Assembly (NCBI GenBank): GCA_034418415.1
Contig: DAOULS010000111.1
Coordinates: 1,157-65,156 of the forward strand
Origin: Dehalococcoidales bacterium
Lineage (GTDB): Bacteria > Chloroflexota > Dehalococcoidia > Dehalococcoidales > RBG-16-60-22
Length of the DNA: 64,000 nt
Direction: 5' to 3'
Under the pieces are notes generated by a model. It did no database searches, was not told where the DNA came from, and saw only the letters and a list, made by a program, of their open reading frames with translations. Of the stretch, positions 1-9,962 are shown piece by piece. Position numbers and translations under genes: made by a program. Every line of letters begins with the position of its first letter. Within the stretch, counting starts at the first letter, position 1.

Positions 1-1
1 G

Positions 2-226
2 CATACCACCAAGACCGGCGAGCCGCGTATCGTCAAAGAATGCACCTATCCCCTGACCGCCGCAAGGTGCGTCGGCCTCATCATCACTGACCTCGCTGTC
101 ATAGAAGTCACGGACAAGGGGCTCGTTCTCAAGGAAATCGCCCCCGGCTGGACCGTTCCGGAGGTGCAGGCGCTTACCGCGGCAGGGCTTAAACCGGCCT
201 CGGATTTGAAGGAAATAGAGCTATAA
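2..226 (+). CDS. 3-oxoacid/acyl CoA-transferase beta subunit, C-terminal part (5'-truncated by window)
   Basis: Manual translation of frame 2: HTTKTGEPRIVKECTYPLTAARCVGLIITDLAVIEVTDKGLVLKEIAPG...EL*, which matches the ScoB/AtoA-type C-terminus. Not in the ORF track. Confidence 0.8.
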   Translation, partial: HTTKTGEPRIVKECTYPLTAARCVGLIITDLAVIEVTDKGLVLKEIAPGWTVPEVQALTAAGLKPASDLKEIEL

Positions 227-309
227 TTCTCAAATCCGTTCAACATTGACAAAAGAATCAGACTAACTGAAAATTAAAGAATGTCAGGAATGATAAGGAG
301 GGAAATATT

Positions 310-936
310 ATGGAATTAACGGATGTAATCAATAAAAGGTGCAGTATCAGAAATTTTAAGCCGACACCTGTGGAAAAAGCCAAGCTAGAGAGGGTACTGG
401 AATCGGGGAGGCGGGCGCCGTCGTGGGGCAACACCCAGCCCTGGCGTTTTATTGTGGTTCAGGATAAGGAAAAAGTAGCGACAATAGCTACCGCAGGTGG
501 GCAGCCCTTTCTAAATGCCCCGGTCTTAATTGTGTGCTGCGGCGTGGCGGATGACTTCTCGCGCAAGCACCATCGGGAGACCCTGGCGCAGTTGAGGGAT
601 TTGGGCGTTATGGACTGGGATGATAACATGCTGGATAACGTGGTTTTAGGTAGCGACGCCTACGCGCCGTACCGACTCGGCCAGCAGGCGATGACAATCA
701 GGGCCGCCGAGCAGTTGATGATTGCCGTGGCGTACATGACTCTGGAGGCGGTGAATCAGGGTCTGGGCACCTGCTGGGTTGGCGCGATAACCCCCAAGGA
801 AGTCCACAAGGTCATGAATTTACCGGACAACGTATTCGTGCATACCTTACTGCCCATCGGCTATCCTAATGAGGACCCCAAACCCCGCCCCCGGAGAGAC
901 GCCAAAGAAATCATTTTCTGGGGAAAATACGGGTAA
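310..936 (+). CDS. Nitroreductase family flavoprotein
   Basis: RCSIRNF, APSWGNTQPWRFIVV and GLGTCWVG motifs; RBS GGAGGG upstream. Confidence 0.9.
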   Translation: MELTDVINKRCSIRNFKPTPVEKAKLERVLESGRRAPSWGNTQPWRFIVVQDKEKVATIATAGGQPFLNAPVLIVCCGVADDFSRKHHRETLAQLRDLGVMDWDDNMLDNVVLGSDAYAPYRLGQQAMTIRAAEQLMIAVAYMTLEAVNQGLGTCWVGAITPKEVHKVMNLPDNVFVHTLLPIGYPNEDPKPRPRRDAKEIIFWGKYG

Positions 937-963
937 TTGATATCATAAAATGCTGAATATTAC

Positions 964-999
964 AGGCGCGACGGTGGGGTTGTTCCAGCGTCGCGTTTG
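964..999. terminator. Hairpin between convergent genes, probable terminator
   Basis: Arms aggcgcgacg / cgtcgcgttt. Confidence 0.55.
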
Positions 1000-1004
1000 T
1001 GCGT

Positions 1005-1116
1005 GCGGTTGCTACTCTTTTACCTTATAGACCTTGCACAACAGTGCACGCCTGGCCCATCTTGTCCAGTTAGTGAAGTACTACAATTTGTTCTTTATCA
1101 GCTTAAGTTCTTCCAT
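1005..1116 (-). repeat. Chimeric remnant: copy of the GH39 3' end joined to a copy of the molybdoenzyme 3' end
   Basis: 1066-1116 matches 1143-1193 at 43/51 nt; 1012-1059 matches 3477-3524 at 43/48 nt (aligned by eye). Confidence 0.85.
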
Positions 1117-1118
1117 TA

Positions 1119-3389
1119 TTAAAATAGTGTTATAAACCCTGCCCAGTTAGCAAAATACTCCAGTTTGCTCTTTATCGGATTAAGTTCTTCCATGAGCGCA
1201 GGGATTTCGTCCTCATACCCGGTTGATTTGAGATATCCGATGCGTTCGTTTAGTAGTGTAAAGCGTTCTACGTCGTTCAGTGCTGTTGTCGCCAGCAGGC
1301 GAATACGTAGTTCATCGACTTCGGCAGAATAACTAGAACCAAGCGACTTTAAAAGTGTGTATAGTGACCAGAGGGCTTTCTGTCCCCAGATACTATAGGG
1401 GTTGATTGTTTCCTTTCCAGTAGCCGAGAAGGAATCTTCTATTATCTGTTCGAACGCTTGCCTGGCGCTGGTTCTATCGCCGGCATTTAGTTTTTCCAAG
1501 GCTGAAATATAAGCGGTCTCTTCTTTAACGAGGCGTTCGATGTGGAGATTTGTATTTAGTTGCGGTGGCAATGCCTCTTCACCGATTACTATCAGTGACA
1601 CTGAGTTTGGCGGCAGGCTGAAACGAAAGGTCACCTGTCCATCCTTACTTTCTAAATTGTCCGTTCGCTCAATGATTTTCAATTTCGAGTCTTCTTCTAC
1701 CAAGCGATATTCACTCCAAGAAATAGTCGTATCCACCTCATGGTTTGCCCAAGCATTGCTGTTAACACTATCAATCTGATAGCGTTTCATATTTGTCCAT
1801 TCTTCTGGCAATTCCGTTATGGTGAGGTTGACGTCTTGAACGTCGCTTTTACACTCATCATCCGTTTCATTAAAATGATACAGCAGTACCTGAACCCCGT
1901 TCTCGGTGCGGGCAGCGAATCCGTGAACAGGATCACCGCATTCGCTGCCGCTAAGCTCGATACGTTCATCGCCCATTTTTGCCAAAAGGATGTAGGCATT
2001 CAGAATGGGCATCGGCACGAAATAGTCTCCAGACATGATTGATAAATATCGTTGTACAAAATTATTCGTAAAACCAAACCTCATCACACGGCTGGGATAT
2101 TTCTCCGGCTCATTGAGAGTGCCATCGATGAACCGGCTTAAATAAGCAGCGTCGTAATTCGTATATAAAGTGTATCCTCTTTCATAGTTCGTATATATAC
2201 CATTGATCCATTTGAATAAAACCTGCCCCCATTCATCTATAATCGTGGGAATGTCTGCAAGAGACGGGTATTGATTAATTATACCCAATTTTTCTCCTGC
2301 ATTTTGAAGGTGAGCATCAATTGTCTCGTAGGAATGCCAGAAAATGGCGTCAAGGGGTGCACCTTTACCCCCGGTTGCAAAGTTTGTTCCATTAACACAA
2401 TGCTCGATAAATGGTCTTAACCAGTCGTGAAAGGCTATATTAGGGCCGCCCACTTTTAATTGTTCATCGGCTGTTTTGATACCATCGGCGAAGTAATCGT
2501 ACATTTTTAAATAACTCTCCATGCTTCCCGTAAAAAAAGCGTCAATATCGGGCTCGTTACGAAGCACAAAGAACCACGTCCGTACCTCTTCGATTCCATA
2601 CCTCGCGATGCAATGCTTGGCAGTTTGGTACATCAGTTCCCGGAATTTGTCATGGTCGTTCGGCCCGTTAATCAATGATCCCTGAAAATTACGTACTTTT
2701 TCGTTTTCGTCCACGAGGTCCTCTGGCATATACTCAAGTTGCAGGACGGGCTTGAGCCCATGTGATACGAACATGTCTAGCATGGCATCGAGAAACCAGA
2801 AATTATACTGCGGATTTCCTTGTTCATCTTCGGTATAAAGAGGACCGGGGCCGAAAGAAGACGAAGGAGGAGAGGTCTGAGGGAGTTCGCCATATTGAAC
2901 CAGTTGCTTGACATATCCGGTAAAATCCTCGGATATGCCATCGGAAAAAATACCATCAGCCCGTGCATATTGAAAGATACCTGTCTGACGGATTAGTTCC
3001 CAGAACGGCAGGTTAGCATCACTAACGGCCGTTCCATAGCTTTCAAGAATATAACCGTCCCATATATTATGGTCGATGTCACCTACCACTTTTTCAACAT
3101 TAACTCCGAGACTATAAGAAGGAGGTGGCAGATTTGTTAAATCGGTGACGGGTGGCCTGCAATCAGGTGAAGGTACGCCCAGATATGGTGAGACATCGAA
3201 CCAGGGCAGAGGTTCATCGGAGGTCGTTGTTGGTTGGGTTGCTAGCTCCGGTTCTGGTTGAGAAGTTGGAGTTGTTGATTGGCCTGGTTCAGTTTCTGTT
3301 TGAGATGGCTCCGCCGCTGGGCAGCCGGTCAAAACCATTACGAAACAAAGGATAATTATGATACTTGTTGTAAGCTTTGCGATATCCAT
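1119..3389 (-). CDS. Glycoside hydrolase family 39-like lipoprotein (beta-xylosidase/iduronidase-like)
   Basis: Lipobox VLTGC, Pro/Thr/Gln linker, YNFWFLDAMLD..GLKPVLQL..MP, acid/base NEPD, nucleophile IIDEWG, helical C-terminal extension. Confidence 0.8.
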   Translation of the reverse strand: MDIAKLTTSIIIILCFVMVLTGCPAAEPSQTETEPGQSTTPTSQPEPELATQPTTTSDEPLPWFDVSPYLGVPSPDCRPPVTDLTNLPPPSYSLGVNVEKVVGDIDHNIWDGYILESYGTAVSDANLPFWELIRQTGIFQYARADGIFSDGISEDFTGYVKQLVQYGELPQTSPPSSSFGPGPLYTEDEQGNPQYNFWFLDAMLDMFVSHGLKPVLQLEYMPEDLVDENEKVRNFQGSLINGPNDHDKFRELMYQTAKHCIARYGIEEVRTWFFVLRNEPDIDAFFTGSMESYLKMYDYFADGIKTADEQLKVGGPNIAFHDWLRPFIEHCVNGTNFATGGKGAPLDAIFWHSYETIDAHLQNAGEKLGIINQYPSLADIPTIIDEWGQVLFKWINGIYTNYERGYTLYTNYDAAYLSRFIDGTLNEPEKYPSRVMRFGFTNNFVQRYLSIMSGDYFVPMPILNAYILLAKMGDERIELSGSECGDPVHGFAARTENGVQVLLYHFNETDDECKSDVQDVNLTITELPEEWTNMKRYQIDSVNSNAWANHEVDTTISWSEYRLVEEDSKLKIIERTDNLESKDGQVTFRFSLPPNSVSLIVIGEEALPPQLNTNLHIERLVKEETAYISALEKLNAGDRTSARQAFEQIIEDSFSATGKETINPYSIWGQKALWSLYTLLKSLGSSYSAEVDELRIRLLATTALNDVERFTLLNERIGYLKSTGYEDEIPALMEELNPIKSKLEYFANWAGFITLF

Positions 3390-3421
3390 TTTTCTCTTTA
3401 TTATAAGGGGATTTATCTTAA

Positions 3422-3473
3422 TGATACCTCAGGAGCGATTCGAATGCTCAATACGCGGTATAGTAAACCGCGG
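3422..3473 (-). pseudogene. Degenerate tRNA-Arg fragment (anticodon arm to CCA end), att-like
   Basis: Ungapped 43/52 nt match to tRNA-Arg 6829-6880, same orientation. Confidence 0.8.
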
Positions 3474-3476
3474 TTT

Positions 3477-5708
3477 CTACTCTTCTACCTTATAGACCTT
3501 GCACAAGAGCGCCCGGCTGGCCCACCCCCCGGTTAATGGGTCGCAGAACTCGTCGCCATCCGGCGTGAGGACATTGGCGTTGGACTGGAACACGCCGAAG
3601 AGACACGGGTCTTCCCCCGGCTGTTCGGGGAACCACCAGCTTGCCTCGGCGTTGACCACGTCCGGCAGTATGTCCGGGCTTAAGCTGGCTCTCATCTTGA
3701 TACGACCCCGCCTCGTCTCAATCCAGACCCACTCGCCTTCTTTGATTCCCAGCTTCCCGGCCGTCTCGAGGTGGATGGTCAATAGCGGGTCGGGGTGCCT
3801 CTCACGCATGCCCAGGCCGAGCTGCCGGTGCTCGGAATGGAAAAACGGCATAAAACGCCCGCCAGTGTTGAGAATCAGGGGATATTCTTTAGCGACATCC
3901 GGTGTGCTTATCGGCGACTCCGGCGGTTCTTCGTAAAATGGCAGCGGGTCTTGCCCCAGCTTCTCCATCACCGTACTGTAAAGCTCCAGCTTTCCCGATG
4001 CCGTGGCGAACCCATCTTCCTCGTATTTTTTATATTTCCTCGTGCCCAGTATGTAACCTGTTTTGGTAAACTCCTCGTAGGTAATCCCCAGGGGCTTGAG
4101 ACGGTAAGCGATGACCTCCTCCACGGTCTCCCACGGCCAGTCGCTTTTGTCCTGTCCTGTTGCCAGCGCCAGGTCCCGGAAAAATGTGTAGTCGTCTTTC
4201 CTTTCCCCCAAGGGCGTAATCGGCCTCTCCCCGCCCCACACCACGTCGGTAAAGTCCTCCTGCGTGGAGCACATGGGACGCTCCAGCCAGCTTGCCGCCG
4301 GCAGAACGTAGTCCGCCAGTTGCGCCGTGGGCGTCATCCAGTATTCCTGCACCACGCTTAGTTCCAGGTTCGGACTTTTCAGGGCTTCGTAAATACGCCT
4401 GATATTGGGACCCCACATTAACGGATTGGAGCCCCAGGTAATGGCGGCTTTAATGGGGTAGGGTTTGCCGGTCATTATGGCTTCGGATGCCATCGGCACA
4501 AACGCGCCGAGACGGTGCATCGTGGTCTGGTTGACCCCGTGCCTTTGGTGCCAGGGCGTATTGGTCAGCTCGTAGCCCCGCCAGGTCATCAGCGGCGCTT
4601 TCTCCTGCCCCATCTGCAGCTTCTTTATTTCTTTAGGCAGCCTTTCGGTAAGCTCCAGCTGGGCGTCGCGGATGAACATCTTGCCGTCGATTATCGGCCC
4701 CACCGACGGTATCAGGTCGCCGCCCCGTATATCGATGTTGCCGGTGATGGCTCTGACCGCGTTCCTTGCCTGGCTGACCCTGGCGGAGTTGGGCCCCAGC
4801 TGGTCGGTTGCCAGTCCGCGGTAAAGCGTGGCCGGTTTCGTGGTGGCGTAAAGCCTTGCCGATGCTGTTATCTGCTCCGCCGGGACCCCGGTAATTTGGG
4901 CGACCCGCTCGGGGGGATATTCCCTGGCTCTTTCGGCAAGTTTGTCGAATCCGCTCGTCCACTTATCGACGAACTCCTTATCGTACAGGTTTTCATTGAT
5001 GATGACGTTTATCCAGCCCATGAACAGCGCCGTGTCCGTGCCCGGCCTTATCTGGAGGTGGATATCGGCGTCCCGTGCAATCTTGGTGATGACCGGGTCG
5101 ATGACGATGAGCTTCAGGGGCGCCTGCTGCCGTCGTCTCACAATCGATGCCAGCGTACGCTGCGACGACTCGTGGGGCCTCAACCCCGAGAGGACGAGGC
5201 AGCTGGTATGGGCGATATCGGGGGTCGCCATCACGGAATCGCCCATCATCGCCTGTTCTGTGGCGAGGCAGTTGAGCGTGCAGACGACGCCGGGATGAAA
5301 GACATTTTGCGGATTGCCGAAGAGGTTGCAGAAACGGGACCTCGCCCAGATATTCTGACCGCGGTACGTCCCCTCGAAAAAGGCCAGCGACTGCGCCCCG
5401 TATTCGGCTTTGAGTTCGTTGAGCTTGCCGGCTATCTCGCCGATGGCTTGCTCCCAGCCGATTCTCTGCCACTTGCCCTCGCCCCGTTTGCCCTCCCTTT
5501 TCAGGGGGTAATGGAGCTGGTCGGGGTGGTAAAGCCACTTGATGGCGTACTTCAACCTTTCGCAGCTGAAACCACGACTCAGCCGGTGTTCCGGGTTCGG
5601 CTCCACCTTGACGATTTTATTGTCCTTTACGTGTACCAGCACGCCGCAGCTTACGGCGCAGAAGCAGCACCCCGCCTTTTTTATCTCTTCTTCAGCCATA
5701 TCCCCCAC
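3477..5708 (-). CDS. Bis-MGD molybdopterin/tungstopterin oxidoreductase (DMSO reductase family, acetylene hydratase-like clade)
   Basis: N-terminal CxxCxxxC...C [4Fe-4S] motif, YPLKR.GKRGEGKW, IRPGTDTAL, ADYVLPAASWLE, C-terminal WWFPE..NANVLT. The start may be 5699 (MAEEE). Confidence 0.9.
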   Translation of the reverse strand: MGDMAEEEIKKAGCCFCAVSCGVLVHVKDNKIVKVEPNPEHRLSRGFSCERLKYAIKWLYHPDQLHYPLKREGKRGEGKWQRIGWEQAIGEIAGKLNELKAEYGAQSLAFFEGTYRGQNIWARSRFCNLFGNPQNVFHPGVVCTLNCLATEQAMMGDSVMATPDIAHTSCLVLSGLRPHESSQRTLASIVRRRQQAPLKLIVIDPVITKIARDADIHLQIRPGTDTALFMGWINVIINENLYDKEFVDKWTSGFDKLAERAREYPPERVAQITGVPAEQITASARLYATTKPATLYRGLATDQLGPNSARVSQARNAVRAITGNIDIRGGDLIPSVGPIIDGKMFIRDAQLELTERLPKEIKKLQMGQEKAPLMTWRGYELTNTPWHQRHGVNQTTMHRLGAFVPMASEAIMTGKPYPIKAAITWGSNPLMWGPNIRRIYEALKSPNLELSVVQEYWMTPTAQLADYVLPAASWLERPMCSTQEDFTDVVWGGERPITPLGERKDDYTFFRDLALATGQDKSDWPWETVEEVIAYRLKPLGITYEEFTKTGYILGTRKYKKYEEDGFATASGKLELYSTVMEKLGQDPLPFYEEPPESPISTPDVAKEYPLILNTGGRFMPFFHSEHRQLGLGMRERHPDPLLTIHLETAGKLGIKEGEWVWIETRRGRIKMRASLSPDILPDVVNAEASWWFPEQPGEDPCLFGVFQSNANVLTPDGDEFCDPLTGGWASRALLCKVYKVEE

Positions 5709-5876
5709 AGCTTGCCATATTTGTATTATTTAATGCAAATATGACTTCATTGCTAGGAAAAATATTATTGTAAAAAGTATTGACAAACTCTCTGGCAGGA
5801 CTATAATTAGAATGCCCTCAATTCCAGGACTCCTGATACCAATTAGATAAAGTGCCATAGTTGGAAGAAAGGAGGC

Positions 5877-6779
5877 TTGGCTATGGTTAAAATTGCAACG
5901 TTCAATGCAGAAAACTTATTTGCTAGGTACAAATTCCGAGAAAATGCCGACCCGCTCAATATGGAGGGCTTCACCATTAACGACCTTGCCTTCGATATAT
6001 ATGAGGAGACGTCCAAACAGATAACGGCAGCGGCTGTTAAAGCCACAAAAGCTGACGTATTGGCACTGCAGGAGGTAGAAAGCCTTCCGGTGCTGGACCG
6101 TTTCAATTCAAGGTATCTGGGTGGGAGGGGATACAAACACAGAATCGTCATCGATGCTTTTGACCCCCGCATGATTGATGTGGCTGTACTAAGTAAGTAT
6201 CCCATCGTAGGCGTCAAGACCTATCGACAGGAAAGAAATAAAAAGAACTCCGCTTTTCTATTCTCCCGTGATTGCCTCCAGGTTACTCTGGATATTGATG
6301 GTAAGCCTCTCGTTATGTATGTGAATCATTTCAAATCGATGATCCCCAAACGTTCGGAAACAAAAGAACGTCGTCAGGAGCAGGTAGAGAGGGTCGCCAG
6401 CATTGTAAAAGAGCAATGGGAAGCGAAGGAGTATAAGGGAAACTTCGTGGTACTGGGTGATTTTAATGACTACATTGAAGGTGATACGTCATTGACAGCA
6501 CTCATTAATCACCCCGGCCTGGTGAACGTATCGGAGCGGCTTCCGGAAGACGAAAGATGGACACATTATTGGGCGGGTGGGAACGAGTCCCGCCAACTGG
6601 ATTTCATACTGTTATCCAAGAGTTTGGGTGCTCTCAATTCTAACAAGCCCGAGATTATGCGGAAAGGTCTTCCTTGGAGGGCCGATAAGTATACCGGTGA
6701 GCGACTGGATAACGTCGGTGAAAACCATCCCAAGGCATCTGACCACTGCCCTCTAATCATGGATTTGAAACTAAGCTAA
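5877..6779 (+). CDS. Endonuclease/exonuclease/phosphatase (EEP) family protein
   Basis: ATFNAENLF, DVLALQEVE, NHFKS, GDFND, LDFILLS and SDHCP motifs. Confidence 0.9.
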   Translation: MAMVKIATFNAENLFARYKFRENADPLNMEGFTINDLAFDIYEETSKQITAAAVKATKADVLALQEVESLPVLDRFNSRYLGGRGYKHRIVIDAFDPRMIDVAVLSKYPIVGVKTYRQERNKKNSAFLFSRDCLQVTLDIDGKPLVMYVNHFKSMIPKRSETKERRQEQVERVASIVKEQWEAKEYKGNFVVLGDFNDYIEGDTSLTALINHPGLVNVSERLPEDERWTHYWAGGNESRQLDFILLSKSLGALNSNKPEIMRKGLPWRADKYTGERLDNVGENHPKASDHCPLIMDLKLS

Positions 6780-6828
6780 AGAAAATCCCCGTTAGCCACT
6801 TAGTCGAAACATGATTAGCTTCCAAAGG

Positions 6829-6905
6829 TGGTACCCCAGGAGCGACTCGAACGCTCGACACGCGGTTTAGGAAACCGCTGCTCTATCCACCTGAGCTACT
6901 GGGGC
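6829..6905 (-). tRNA. tRNA-Arg (anticodon CCT)
   Basis: Reverse complement GCCCCAGTAGCTCAGGTGGATAGAGCAGCGGTTTCCTAAACCGCGTGTCGAGCGTTCGAGTCGCTCCTGGGGTACCA folds as a cloverleaf; CCA is encoded. Confidence 0.95.
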
Positions 6906-7075
6906 ATGTGCTTCAAGTGTAATTCTAACAATTGAAAGCCCTCTCTGCAACCGTTATTAGTTATCTCGCCCTATTTGCTATTTTCAATACGCTGGTATAT
7001 CATTTTTTAAACGAGTCGCCAGAGCAAAAATGGTGCGGAAAATCCGGTAGCCCCCGCCGCCTGGCGTGATTTTTT

Positions 7076-8101
7076 ATGGAAACGTTGCTTTTTCGGGTGG
7101 ACGCAGGACCCCAAATCGGCACGGGGCACTTGATGCGCTGCCTGGCGCTGGCGCAGGCATGGAAGGATCAGGGCGGTAAAGCTGTCTTTATTACATCGTG
7201 CCGGGTTGAAGGACTGCTGGCACGACTCCGCGATGAAGGTTTTGAGGTTCGTGCCGTTCCTGACTCTGACGACTGGCCGGATACGCATAAAATTCTTACT
7301 GAATATCCTGGTACATGGGTAGCCCTGGACGGCTATCACTTCGACGGCGCGTATCAGCAAAAGATAAAGGGGCTGGGCTGCCGTTTGCTCGTCATCGATG
7401 ACATGGCGCACCTGGAAAATTACTATGCGGATATCGTGCTCAACCAGAACCTGCACGCCGAACTGCTTCAATATACCTGCGAGCCCCATACGCGCCTCTT
7501 GCTGGGTACGAAATATGTGTTATTAAGAAGGGAGTTCCGTGCCTGGCAGGGCAAAAAACGGACGGCGCCTGAAAAAGCCCGCCGTGTCCTGGTGACTTTA
7601 GGCGGTGCCGACCCCGCTAACCACACGCTCAAGGTAGTCCGGGCTTTACAGCAGGTAGACATTCCCGACCTTGAAGCCACTGTTATCATTGGCGGCAGCA
7701 ATGCCAATGCTGATATACTGCAGGCGGAGACCGCGCGGGGTAATGTGAAAATCCGCCTGGTTCGGGACGTAAAAAATATGCCGGAACTGATGGCAAGGGC
7801 GGACGTGGCGGTGGTATCGGCGGGCACTACGGTCTGGGAGCTGGCGTTCCTGGGAGTGCCGTGTATTGTGGGGATTACCGCCGAAATCGAAGTATATCTG
7901 GTCAAGGGTCTCCGCAAGTACGGCCTGTTTACGGATATCGGCTGGTTTAAAGATGCTTCTGTAGAGCAGTTAAAAAACACCTTGCTGGACTTGATACAGG
8001 ACAGGGAAAGACGGCAAAGCATGACTGAATTGGGACAGCGCCTCGTCGACGGCGCCGGGTGCGATAATACTATCAAAGAGTTGCTCGGACGTAAGGTATA
8101 A
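7076..8101 (+). CDS. pseG: UDP-2,4-diacetamido-2,4,6-trideoxy-beta-L-altropyranose hydrolase-like (GT-B fold)
   Basis: FRVDAGPQIGTGHLMRCLALA, DGYHFD, IDD, LLGTKYVLLRREF and LVTLGGAD motifs. Confidence 0.8.
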   Translation: METLLFRVDAGPQIGTGHLMRCLALAQAWKDQGGKAVFITSCRVEGLLARLRDEGFEVRAVPDSDDWPDTHKILTEYPGTWVALDGYHFDGAYQQKIKGLGCRLLVIDDMAHLENYYADIVLNQNLHAELLQYTCEPHTRLLLGTKYVLLRREFRAWQGKKRTAPEKARRVLVTLGGADPANHTLKVVRALQQVDIPDLEATVIIGGSNANADILQAETARGNVKIRLVRDVKNMPELMARADVAVVSAGTTVWELAFLGVPCIVGITAEIEVYLVKGLRKYGLFTDIGWFKDASVEQLKNTLLDLIQDRERRQSMTELGQRLVDGAGCDNTIKELLGRKV

Positions 8102-9063: not shown

Positions 9064-9962
9064 AAATCGGTAAGTATCAGGTGGTGGAGGATACCGATTA
9101 CGGCTACCGGCGTCTCGACCCCCTGCCTGATGATGCGGAGTTGACCAAGTTCTACGAGAGTCAGTATTACGACCTTATCCGTAAGGGCGGGCGGGCGCCG
9201 GAGTTGCGGCGCCTGATGGCTGGCGGCAGGGAAGGCGAGCTTGAGCGTCGCTGGCTGCACGAGACCCTCTATACCGATATCCTCTATGTGCTGGATAAGT
9301 TCGCGCCGGGCAAACGGGTACTGGATGTCGGCTGCGGCGTGGGCGAATTCCTTTCTTTTCTAAAACAGAAAAAGCGCAACGCCGCCGGCATCGAACCGGC
9401 GCAGGAAGCGGCCGCCGCGGCGCAGAAAAAGGGACTGGACGTGCGCGCCGCCACTCTGGAGGAATTTGCCGCCGGGGTCTCGGTCAAGTCCGAGAAGTTC
9501 GGCGCGGTTATTCTCTTAAACGTCCTGGAGCACACGCCCCATCCGGAAAACGTGGTTGAGCTGGTTAAGAAAGTCCTGGAGCCGGATGGCGTAATCTGTG
9601 TCCGCGTGCCCAATGATTTCTCTGAAATCCAGCTGGCGGCGTATGATAAACTGAAAAAAGACCCCTGGTGGATATCCCCGCCCGACCATATAAATTACTT
9701 TAACTTTAAATCGTTAAACGACTTCCTGGAAAAGCTTGGTTTTGAGATTGTCTATGCCCAGGGCGATTATCCCATGGAACTCTTCCTGCTGCAGGGTGAC
9801 GATTATACAGGCAATCCTGAACTGGGCGGCAAGTGTCACCGTAAAAGGGTCGATTTTGAACTGTCCATCCCCGGCGAATTAAGGCGCCGTTTATACCAGG
9901 CGCTGGCGCTGGCCGGCGTGGGTCGCGACTGCCTGACCTTCGGGAGGCTTAAGGGAAAATGA
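9060..9962 (+). CDS. Class I SAM-dependent methyltransferase
   Basis: VLDVGCGVG, LNVLEH, VPND and PPDHINYF motifs, typical of glycan-locus methyltransferases. Confidence 0.85.
   Translation: MKIGKYQVVEDTDYGYRRLDPLPDDAELTKFYESQYYDLIRKGGRAPELRRLMAGGREGELERRWLHETLYTDILYVLDKFAPGKRVLDVGCGVGEFLSFLKQKKRNAAGIEPAQEAAAAAQKKGLDVRAATLEEFAAGVSVKSEKFGAVILLNVLEHTPHPENVVELVKKVLEPDGVICVRVPNDFSEIQLAAYDKLKKDPWWISPPDHINYFNFKSLNDFLEKLGFEIVYAQGDYPMELFLLQGDDYTGNPELGGKCHRKRVDFELSIPGELRRRLYQALALAGVGRDCLTFGRLKGK

Follow-up and report, generated by a model that had tools for sequence, protein, structure and literature searches.

The window, the 64-kb stretch of DNA that was analysed as a whole, contains a locus at which an intact tRNA-Arg(CCT) gene, an endonuclease/exonuclease/phosphatase (EEP) family gene, a gene for a stand-alone, acetylene-hydratase-like Mo/W bis-PGD enzyme (hereafter the Mo gene), a GH39 glycoside hydrolase gene and a nitroreductase-family gene follow one another (Table 1). 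Interspersed among these genes are three short, decayed copies of gene ends, denoted T', M' and G', whose parents T, M and G are the 3' parts of the tRNA, Mo and GH39 genes, respectively. The surrounding region is a pseudaminic-acid gene cluster, and the lineage, which belongs to the Dehalococcoidia, is uncultured.

Table 1. Features of the tRNA-Arg(CCT) locus, in window coordinates.
Feature	Position	Strand	Basis
Nitroreductase-family gene, conserved distal flank	310..936	+	Pfam
Native Mo-nitroreductase spacer, GC-rich hairpin (GCGACG..CGTCGC)	937..1004	.	by-eye comparison with L020 6902-6969
M', decayed copy of M, the 55-nt end of the Mo gene	1005..1059	-	49/55 (89%) to M
G', decayed older GH39 3' end	1063..1116	-	repeat search, translation
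GH39 glycoside hydrolase gene, lipoprotein-type N-terminus, in the place of the putative second Mo copy	1119..3389	-	Pfam PF01229
G, current GH39 coding 3' end, parent in the G/G' pair	1140..1193	-	repeat search, 83%
Trailer of T' (TTAAGATAAATCCC)	3408..3421	-	anchored comparison
T', decayed copy of tRNA-Arg positions 27-76	3422..3471	-	ungapped comparison, repeat search
M, last 48 nt of Mo coding sequence, stop codon and 7 nt of native flank, parent in the M/M' pair	3470..3524	-	repeat search, local alignment
Mo/W bis-PGD enzyme gene (Mo), 740 aa	3477..5699	-	Pfam, 2e7z match, orthologues
Native Mo leader with conserved motif TATGGCAAGCTGTGGGG	5700..5743	-	aligned with L017, L020, L026
Inserted segment, about 1.06 kb, within the native tRNA-Mo spacer, with EEP gene and promoter region	5744..6812	.	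spacer alignment
Predicted sigma-70-type promoter, perfect consensus TTGACA-16-TATAAT, upstream of EEP	5780..5807	+	consensus scan 12/12
EEP family gene, 298 aa	5883..6779	+	Pfam PF19580, PF03372
tRNA trailer CCTTTGGAAGCTAATC	6813..6828	-	sequence comparison, trailer alignment
Intact tRNA-Arg(CCT) gene (T), CCA encoded	6829..6905	-	ARAGORN

A decayed half-copy of tRNA-Arg(CCT)

The sequence that directly follows the Mo gene is a decayed half-copy of tRNA-Arg. In an ungapped comparison, positions 3422-3473 and 6829-6880, both on the minus strand, agree at 43/52 nucleotides, the next-highest score being 28/52 when all positions on both strands of the window (about 128,000 positions) are considered, and a separate repeat search recovers the pair 3422-3471 and 6829-6878 at 84%. 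The homology begins in the 5' strand of the anticodon stem, at tRNA position 26/27, reaches as far as the terminal CCA, and is colinear across the anticodon arm, the variable loop, the T arm and the acceptor strand; the copy ends in TCA where the intact tRNA has CCA, and its anticodon has changed from CCT to ACT. Since the heptamer AAACCGC (3470-3476) that follows the Mo stop codon belongs to the native 3' flank of the gene, being found also in L020 and in M', the tRNA-derived part proper starts at 3471 and not at 3473. A clade-specific A-T pair in the T stem is common to the fragment and to the window's own tRNA-Arg, and no other tRNA is a better match for the fragment. The first-pass annotation was therefore right both in describing a same-orientation copy of the 3' part of this tRNA and in tracing it to tRNA-Arg.

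The same annotation had expected ARAGORN to return a partial hit for the fragment; the program calls only the intact tRNA-Arg(CCT) and one tRNA-Ala in the window, leaving T' uncalled, and Rfam finds no tRNA in positions 3300-3600 even at E<=10. The latter result points to T', which comprises no tRNA 5' half and has a mismatched T stem, as a partial and dead fragment. Seven of its nine differences from the intact gene are G/C to A/T changes in the fragment, and at those positions the tRNAs of 12 relatives side with the intact gene, thereby placing the decay on the branch of the fragment. The window holds no more partial copies of either tRNA-Arg or tRNA-Ala. The structure recurs, with the fragment identical, in L002, an independent assembly from Logan, so that an assembly chimera does not account for it.

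The sequences that trail the two copies differ in type. Several Dehalococcoidia keep the core AAGCTAA(T) behind their tRNA-Arg(CCT). The intact tRNA of the window has a trailer of the long type, like those of L018 and L019, with an extra TTTGG; that of T', without TTTGG, is of the short type, as in the closest relatives. In an anchored comparison, AAGATAA stands in the T' trailer at the same offset as in the trailer of L017, a coincidence that is suggestive only of trailer homology. A longer homology of the T' trailer to the native spacer or leader was rejected, the free local alignment being not significant against shuffles.

It had also been proposed that the anticodon hairpin retained in T' could serve as the terminator of the Mo gene. 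A 6-bp hairpin is indeed present; on the Mo sense strand it is followed by no T-run, the only terminator-like call falls on the opposite strand, and the region folds no better than shuffled sequences (z = -0.73), which makes for a weak case.

Native and acquired genes around the tRNA

Over its full length, the Mo protein matches acetylene hydratase (2e7z) at E = 2.8e-135. Its gene lies 64-69 nt downstream of the same tRNA-Arg, with the 5' leader conserved, in three independent relatives (L017, L020 and L026), and Mo is therefore the native neighbour of the tRNA. L017 and L026 have a tRNA identical to the intact one of the window, whose 3' part is also identical to the displaced part in L020. 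The Mo orthologues that adjoin this tRNA are 94% identical in amino acids (L017) or nucleotides (L020), and identity between the window and L020 is about equal in the Mo gene (94.1%) and in the 7.6 kb downstream (93.0%); likewise, the GC content of Mo (58.9%) is flanked by the values for the orthologues next to the tRNA in L017 (57.6%) and L020 (59.8%). On the distal side, the order in L020 is Mo, 76 nt and nitroreductase, the window's nitroreductase being 86.5% identical in amino acids to that of L017; in L017 a different insertion, a HicB-type pair, begins 10 nt behind the stop codon of Mo. Other genomes (L005, L006, L007 and L021-L025) have Mo homologues of 81-90% identity in at least three unrelated contexts, and the idea that the fragment travels with the Mo gene was rejected, there being no piece of tRNA-Arg beside any of them. 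In L006 an unrelated partial tRNA-Thr lies about 545 nt upstream.

The EEP gene, by contrast with Mo, was acquired, and it constitutes the sole variable content of the tRNA-Mo interval. The insertion that carries it is clean, is absent from L017, L020 and L026, and has a GC content of 46.7% versus 53-59% in its neighbours. The protein is a singleton at 90% identity, with a best homologue at 74% and the nearest named one, from Neomarinimicrobiota, at 70%; it is distantly similar to the ExeM/NucH nuclease domain, with an NCBIfam match that falls under the cutoff of that model. The promoter assigned to the gene is predicted from its consensus pattern. A link between EEP and a tRNA elsewhere was considered and rejected, the contig of the closest homologue (L027) having no tRNA. 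Of the two genes that the first-pass annotation had taken for the cargo of an islet, only EEP is thus acquired content, and the comparison that it had suggested of what lies downstream of the tRNA in related genomes reveals EEP as variable and Mo as conserved; for Mo, this is the very outcome that the annotation had named as refuting its reading.

The GH39 gene is likewise absent from the relatives and a singleton at 90% identity; its best homologue is 60% identical, only 22 matches are obtained at 1e-20, and its GC content is 44.9%. It shows no similarity to Mo over the interior of the supposed second copy. A candidate homology between the current GH39 tail and the Mo tail amounts to 11/13 matches, a score reached by 67/2000 shuffles, and is suggestive only.

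Interleaved repeats and their origin

On the tRNA strand the repeats follow one another in the order T (6829-6878), M, T' and M'. M' runs on into the native spacer between Mo and nitroreductase, and in a BLAST comparison the L020 alignment goes from the Mo tail of that relative directly via M' into the genes of the following 7.6 kb; the window has no paralogue of Mo from which M' could have come. The block T'-GH39-G' is bounded exactly by M and M', which form a direct repeat of 55 nt, and T' starts exactly where the homology between M and M' ends, with an overlap of 2 nt (GC, 3470-3471) between M and T'. The spacing of 3407 between T and T' equals the native unit of 2347, as measured in L020, plus the 1060-nt EEP insert. 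G' is joined in frame to M' and encodes ..YFTNWTRW, the family-typical C-terminus of GH39 (NWTRW), which argues that the GH39 gene arrived by breaking a real Mo gene.

These observations are best accommodated, in our judgment, by supposing that T' marks a second tRNA-Mo copy that was joined head to tail to the first, by tandem duplication or homology-anchored insertion, and was later overwritten; we consider this account probable. The duplicated unit would span tRNA-Arg from position 27, the trailer, the leader and the Mo gene up to 10 nt beyond the stop codon, and a single illegitimate joint between the Mo flank ..AAACC[GC] and the tRNA sequence ..[GC]GGTTT, with 2-nt microhomology, would have placed the copy right after the first. 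The joint could have arisen by tandem duplication or, with the same outcome, by the homology-anchored insertion of a relative's copy of the segment. A head-to-tail duplication gives exactly one novel joint and would therefore account for the abutment of T' on M, and it is because the unit would have been duplicated in this manner that the fragment behind Mo would derive from the gene's own upstream tRNA. The foreign GH39 gene would later have overwritten the second copy from the end of the tRNA trailer up to the final 16 codons of Mo, so that T' and its trailer survived on one side and M' on the other, its 3' end having perhaps first been fused in frame to the Mo tail (G'-M') and been remodelled afterwards to give G. 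Separately, the first copy would have received the 1.06-kb EEP segment, with its own promoter, in the spacer between tRNA and Mo. T', M' and G' are presumably non-functional and decaying toward A/T.

The surviving ends of the second copy measure about 50-65 nt each and its interior is gone, and we therefore infer the duplication from two ends only; a relative with two full tRNA(3')-Mo copies was not found. The resemblance of the T' trailer, short and lacking significance unless anchored, and the TTTGG present only behind the intact tRNA likewise speak against the account. T' and M' together differ from their parents at 15/105 nucleotides, which is in excess of what is expected if they are younger than the split between the window and L020, given that third positions of the Mo gene differ by 13.8% over both lineages. 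L020 may have lost the block by recombination between M and M', one of the copies may derive from a diverged relative, or the sample may simply be too small to tell.

The reading put forward in the first-pass annotation is that a tyrosine-integrase element entered tRNA-Arg(CCT), with T' as the displaced att copy and 3474-6828 as a shrunken element that carries Mo and EEP as cargo and has lost its integrase. Within the clade this tRNA is indeed a hot spot of integration, with its site in the anticodon loop: a tyrosine integrase sits between a 5' tRNA part and the intact tRNA gene in L016, and L020 has an attR-type junction at tRNA-Arg(CCT). These junctions favour an island, as do the repetition of the tRNA 3' part in the same orientation up to CCA, a foreign EEP gene adjoining the tRNA, and the short trailer of T' and the long one of the intact tRNA, as expected if T' were the original end of the host's gene. 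What renders this reading unlikely is that three relatives have Mo natively beside the tRNA, that the identity of Mo is in step with that of its flanks, and that Mo, EEP and two spacers of 183 nt and 49 nt fill the interval, which contains no integrase and leaves no space for a remnant of one; the L016 integrase, used as a tblastn query against the window, gives a best E of 0.8. Moreover, the junctions in L016 and L020 end or start in the loop TTCCTAA and their repeats are 97-100% identical, whereas T' starts at tRNA position 27, 5' of the loop, on a GC that is common to the native Mo flank (the 2-nt microhomology); an attP arm could also carry the 5' strand of the stem. Mo, together with 10 nt of flank of the native type, would have had to lie right at the border of attP, and both M' and the start of T' at the end of the Mo-tail repeat are left unexplained; to fit M', the element would have carried a relative's tRNA-Mo segment into a host whose resident Mo gene had already been destroyed by GH39. 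As for an attP in viruses, the tRNA-Arg 3' part was not found in IMG/VR, and a literature search on Dehalococcoidia tRNA islands gave nothing specific.

We also hold it to be improbable that the island is GH39 itself, that is, that a circular element with about 55 nt of Mo-tail homology recombined at the Mo 3' end, by a site-specific or Campbell-type event, such that the element's tail (M) restored Mo, the host's tail was displaced (M') and T' is an unrelated relic at the left edge of the element. The exact flanking of T'-GH39-G' by the direct repeats M and M', the foreign GC and phyletic pattern of GH39, and the start of the HicB-type insertion of L017 at the same distance of 10 nt from the Mo stop codon are all as such an event would have it. 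It leaves unexplained, however, the coincidence that a relic from the very tRNA that lies just upstream of the target gene should abut the repeat without a spacer; a recombinase gene is absent, and the in-frame coding fusion of G' and M' resembles an illegitimate joint rather than an att site.

T' (50 nt), M' (55 nt) and G' (54 nt) each represent the last 50-55 nt of a gene and lie downstream of that gene. Because the three scars are alike, and because the L017 insertion likewise lies 10 nt behind the Mo stop codon, one might see in them the footprint of a recurrent, undescribed mode by which Dehalococcoidia stack genes behind stop codons, each event copying or displacing some 50 nt from the end of the upstream gene, which we regard as very unlikely. 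Chance or convergence, for instance with an unrelated tRNA-like hairpin element, has only the short length of the match to commend it and is practically negligible against 43/52 identities over a background maximum of 28/52, colinearity over the tRNA arms and the common clade-specific T-stem pair.

Relation to known rearrangements

Where part of a tRNA recurs downstream of the intact gene, the usual interpretation is an att scar at the border of an island. In tRNA-integrated islands of tyrosine integrases, crossover reportedly takes place in the anticodon loop and leaves a direct repeat of the tRNA 3' part. The locus resembles them in that a same-orientation partial copy, from the anticodon arm to the 3' end, lies downstream of the intact gene, and in that L016 and L020 have true integrase junctions at the same tRNA; it differs from them in that it has no integrase, the main gene that it encloses natively adjoins the tRNA, the copy begins at a microhomology joint 5' of the loop, and the second repeat, that of the Mo tail, is interleaved with the first and not nested. 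Islands targeted to ssrA in Dehalococcoides are said to form tandem arrays separated by repeated ssrA 3' ends; they share with our locus the bacterial class, a small RNA gene as a recurrent site and leftover 3' copies as marks of old events, but their att cores are short, near-identical and accompanied by integrases, whereas the repeat in the window is long, diverged and better explained by duplication.

The probable duplication of the tRNA-Mo segment has its closest parallel in tandem segmental duplication by microhomology recombination, with which it has in common the order A..B A'..B', the single novel joint with 2-nt microhomology, the fact that A and B are neighbours in relatives, and the disruption of the redundant copy; unlike in that case, a foreign gene has taken the place of the interior, and the duplication is for this reason not directly visible. 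Homology-facilitated illegitimate recombination, which is said to operate in naturally transformable bacteria, would give the same map, since, with a tRNA as the anchor and a single joint at a microhomology, DNA of foreign or allelic origin can be added and part of the anchor left behind in a displaced position.

The locus is hence most likely an ordinary rearrangement scar that reflects genome plasticity and implies no new type of system. Its main value is methodological: three relatives and an interleaved second repeat reveal a probable duplication scar where the att-scar reading would wrongly present an acetylene-hydratase-like enzyme of vertical descent as cargo gained by horizontal transfer. 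Besides the scar, two separate small acquisitions come to light, an EEP nuclease and a rare GH39 lipoprotein, and tRNA-Arg(CCT) is documented as a recurrent anticodon-loop integration site in Dehalococcoidia.

A decayed copy of the tRNA-Arg gene

In the tRNA's direction of transcription the locus runs through PseG, tRNA-Arg(CCT), EEP (an endonuclease/exonuclease/phosphatase family gene), Mo (an acetylene-hydratase-like molybdoenzyme gene), T' (the tRNA fragment), GH39 and nitroreductase; farther out it continues with CoA-transferase genes and the remainder of a nonulosonic-acid cluster, including NeuB and a CMP-transferase.

Genes and repeats of the locus, in window positions
Feature	Position	Strand	Location	Remarks
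PseG	7076-8101	tRNA strand	first in order	NCBIfam equivalog above cutoff
tRNA-Arg(CCT), intact	6829-6905	minus		ARAGORN
EEP nuclease-family gene	5883-6779	opposite to tRNA	between tRNA-Arg and Mo	
Mo, stand-alone Mo/W bis-PGD enzyme	5699-3477	tRNA strand		full-length similarity to acetylene hydratase 2e7z
M	3470-3524		Mo 3' end	last 48 coding nt, stop and 7 flank nt
T'	3422-3471	minus		
GH39 glycosidase	3389-1119	tRNA strand	after T'	
G	1140-1193		present GH39 3' end	parent of the G/G' repeat
G'	1063-1116		downstream of GH39	83% identical to G
M'	1005-1059		downstream of GH39	49/55 against M
Nitroreductase-family gene	310-936	opposite to tRNA	beyond GH39	

The 3' part of tRNA-Arg matches 3422-3473 on the same (minus) strand at 43 of 52 positions, against a top unrelated score of 28/52 over the whole window and both strands, which excludes chance similarity and bears out the same-orientation partial copy reported by the first-pass annotation; a repeat search recovered the pair independently. 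T' spans the anticodon arm, variable loop, T arm, acceptor strand and CCA. ARAGORN, from which a pseudo or partial call had been expected, called the intact gene but not T', nor did Rfam, and seven of its nine differences replace G/C by A/T at positions on which the intact gene and 12 related tRNA-Arg genes agree; on these grounds T' appears to be a dead, decaying copy. Since it carries a T-stem A-T pair peculiar to the lineage of the window and the related genome L017, it originates from the window's own tRNA-Arg and not from a different tRNA. The arrangement recurs in L002, an independent Logan assembly from a near-identical strain. That contig breaks within the tRNA near position ~21 (contig position 1), with two mismatches there, likely reflecting several genomes in the sample with a common tRNA 5' part.

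The suggestion that the anticodon hairpin of T' could terminate Mo transcription is weak: the 6-bp hairpin folds, but on the Mo sense strand it lacks a following T-run, a scan finds it terminator-like on the opposite strand only, and the 101-nt region does not exceed shuffles in stability (z = -0.73). As the GH39 start lies on the same strand, 33 nt past T', read-through from Mo into GH39 is plausible from the sequence.

Mo as a neighbour of the tRNA in related genomes

Searching one genome per species with the first 44 nt of the tRNA gave 12 loci in relatives labelled Dehalococcoidia, Dehalococcoidales or Dehalococcoidaceae, among which L017 alone has an identical tRNA and is also the only one with flanking genes in common. 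There, PseG and then a class-III aminotransferase precede tRNA-Arg, and Mo (94% amino acid identity) follows after 69 nt, with ~1.1 kb of AT-rich DNA and nitroreductase behind it; EEP, GH39 and the fragment are all absent from this locus. The related contig L020, found via the 90% cluster of the Mo protein, carries Mo, 76 nt, nitroreductase and then the same downstream genes as the window, and the metagenome contig L026 reads aminotransferase, tRNA-Arg, 64 nt, Mo start. All four sequences align over the ~44 nt that directly precede the Mo start, including the motif TATGGCAAGCTGTGGGG; identity between the window and L020 is 94.1% over Mo and 93.0% over the 7.6 kb downstream; and the high GC of Mo (58.9%, GC3 76%) is common to its orthologues. 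Adjacency to the tRNA, the shared leader, the flank-like identity to L020 and equally GC-rich orthologues thus identify Mo as a native, vertically inherited neighbour of the tRNA, and not as one of the two cargo genes of an island, as had been proposed.

The second supposed cargo gene, EEP, is indeed acquired and variable. The variable genes are EEP and GH39: clustering of 15 billion proteins at 90% identity leaves each a singleton, their GC contents are 46.7% and 44.9% (surroundings 53-59%), and their relatives are all distant. For EEP the top homologue reaches 74% identity and the nearest named one, from another phylum, 70%; GH39 has 22 matches in total, the top one 60% identical. The EEP segment is a clean insertion that leaves ~16 nt of tRNA trailer and ~44 nt of Mo leader in place, and it carries, by pattern match, a perfect consensus promoter (5780-5807).

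Further features were noted around these genes. The clade-conserved motif TATGGCAAGCTGTGGGG (window 5700-5720; L017 1807-1827; L020 4651-4671; L026 21-41) could be a regulatory or ribosome-binding element; in L006 and L007, more distant homologues of Mo are preceded by related forms, GTGGCAAGCTTAGGGTGG and GTGGCGAGTTTAAGGTGG. Mo homologues of 81-90% identity (L005-L007, L021-L025) stand alone, lacking partner subunits, and occur in at least three unrelated settings, e.g. between leuA and ilvC or beside an Opp-type ABC transporter; in every case their GC3 clearly exceeds that of the locus around them. In L017 the Mo-nitroreductase spacer is replaced by the ~1.1 kb AT-rich insert (4058-5123; two small ORFs, of which the second has a HicB domain), which begins 10 nt past the Mo stop, the place where T' begins in the window. 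The class-III aminotransferase gene separates PseG from the tRNA in L017 and L026; in the window 24 nt (7033-7056) stand in place of this 1.4-kb gene, with a remnant of its 3' end (tcacgccaggcgg..ggctaccgg) recognisable at about 7047-7072, which suggests that the lineage of the window underwent a clean deletion within the pseudaminic-acid gene cluster.

Integration at tRNA-Arg(CCT) in the clade

That integrases target this tRNA holds for the clade. In another Dehalococcoidia MAG, L016, a 389-aa tyrosine integrase (PF00589, E = 1.8e-26) lies between the intact tRNA and a 97% identical 5' part (positions 1-39, ending right after TTCCTAA), the ~2-kb insert occupying 115-2234 and the gene 966-2135. 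In L020, the tRNA 3' part alone, 100% identical from the anticodon loop TTCCTAA onward, stands just upstream of Mo and is preceded by unrelated AT-rich DNA, which makes this an attR-type junction with some element. The AT-rich DNA, at least 4.5 kb long (1-4606), replaces the tRNA 5' part and codes for HATPase_c, receiver-domain and metallo-beta-lactamase-fold proteins; no integrase is found in this visible part, and the contig ends before the element's other end. Common to the first ~15 nt past CCA in the window (6813-6828), L013, L018, L019 and L020, ahead of unrelated genes, is (G)AAGCTAA(A)T, so this trailer is either functional or spread by elements carrying the tRNA 3' end and trailer in attP. 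L006 holds a partial tRNA-Thr(CGT) from anticodon stem to CCA (9407-9458, minus; no ARAGORN call), a scar ~545 nt upstream of a Mo homologue (84% identical).

The fragment in the window is better explained otherwise. A classical integrase islet, conceivable in contrived form only, is improbable: it requires Mo as cargo, which the relatives contradict; the interval offers no space for the integrase that it also needs; and it does not account for M'.

Repeats and a proposed history

The repeat pairs occur along the tRNA strand as T (the intact tRNA), M, T', M', interleaved and not nested. M' and G' are, like T', decayed copies of gene 3' ends. M/M' homology ends at 3470 and T/T' homology begins at 3471, with a dinucleotide GC common to both; AAACCGC, the 7 nt past the Mo stop, is native Mo flank, found also in L020 and M', and M' continues directly into the native Mo-nitroreductase spacer. 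The bases following T' (TTAAGATAAATC) resemble the L017 tRNA trailer (CCAAGATAATC) at the same offset, a likeness too short for significance in an unanchored test. G' and M' are in frame, and G' encodes ..YFTNWTRW, a C-terminus typical of GH39 homologues (..EYFANWTRW..), from which we infer that GH39 came in by disrupting a genuine Mo gene 16 codons ahead of the stop, and that the GH39 3' end was remodelled later. No Mo paralogue exists within the window. The present GH39 tail (1119-1139, GCAGGGTTTATAA) matches part of the Mo tail at 1005-1059 (GCAAGGTCTATAA) at 11/13, a score reached by 67/2000 shuffles, and the current C-terminus, NWAGFITLF, may come from the old GH39-Mo fusion through deletions.

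A GH39 element recombined with the Mo tail would account for M/M' but not for T' at the element's edge, and we consider it unlikely. A head-to-tail duplication of the stretch that begins at tRNA position 27 and ends 10 nt past the Mo stop, in contrast, would create exactly one novel joint, as seen, and would derive the piece behind Mo from Mo's own upstream tRNA. The T-T' spacing, 3407, is the sum of the native unit, 2347 as measured in L020, and 1060 for the EEP insert. From a native state of tRNA, trailer, leader, Mo, spacer and nitroreductase, this segment would have been duplicated with a 2-nt microhomology joint or, equivalently, a relative's copy of it inserted, anchored by homology; GH39 would then have overwritten the redundant second Mo, leaving T' with its trailer and M'; remodelling of the GH39 3' end would have produced G and G'; and the EEP segment would have entered the tRNA-Mo spacer of the first copy. 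Weak points of the duplication are that the interior of the supposed second copy is gone, that the intact tRNA's trailer has an extra TTTGG, and that T' and M' together diverge at 15/105, above expectation if they are younger than the split from L020, which lacks both. This excess may reflect loss of the block in L020 by M/M' recombination, a copy from a diverged relative or too small a sample.

The fragment itself is therefore confirmed, whereas the island interpretation is supported in part; T' is most likely the scar of a head-to-tail duplication of the native tRNA-Mo unit, and as such would be a product of ordinary genome plasticity.
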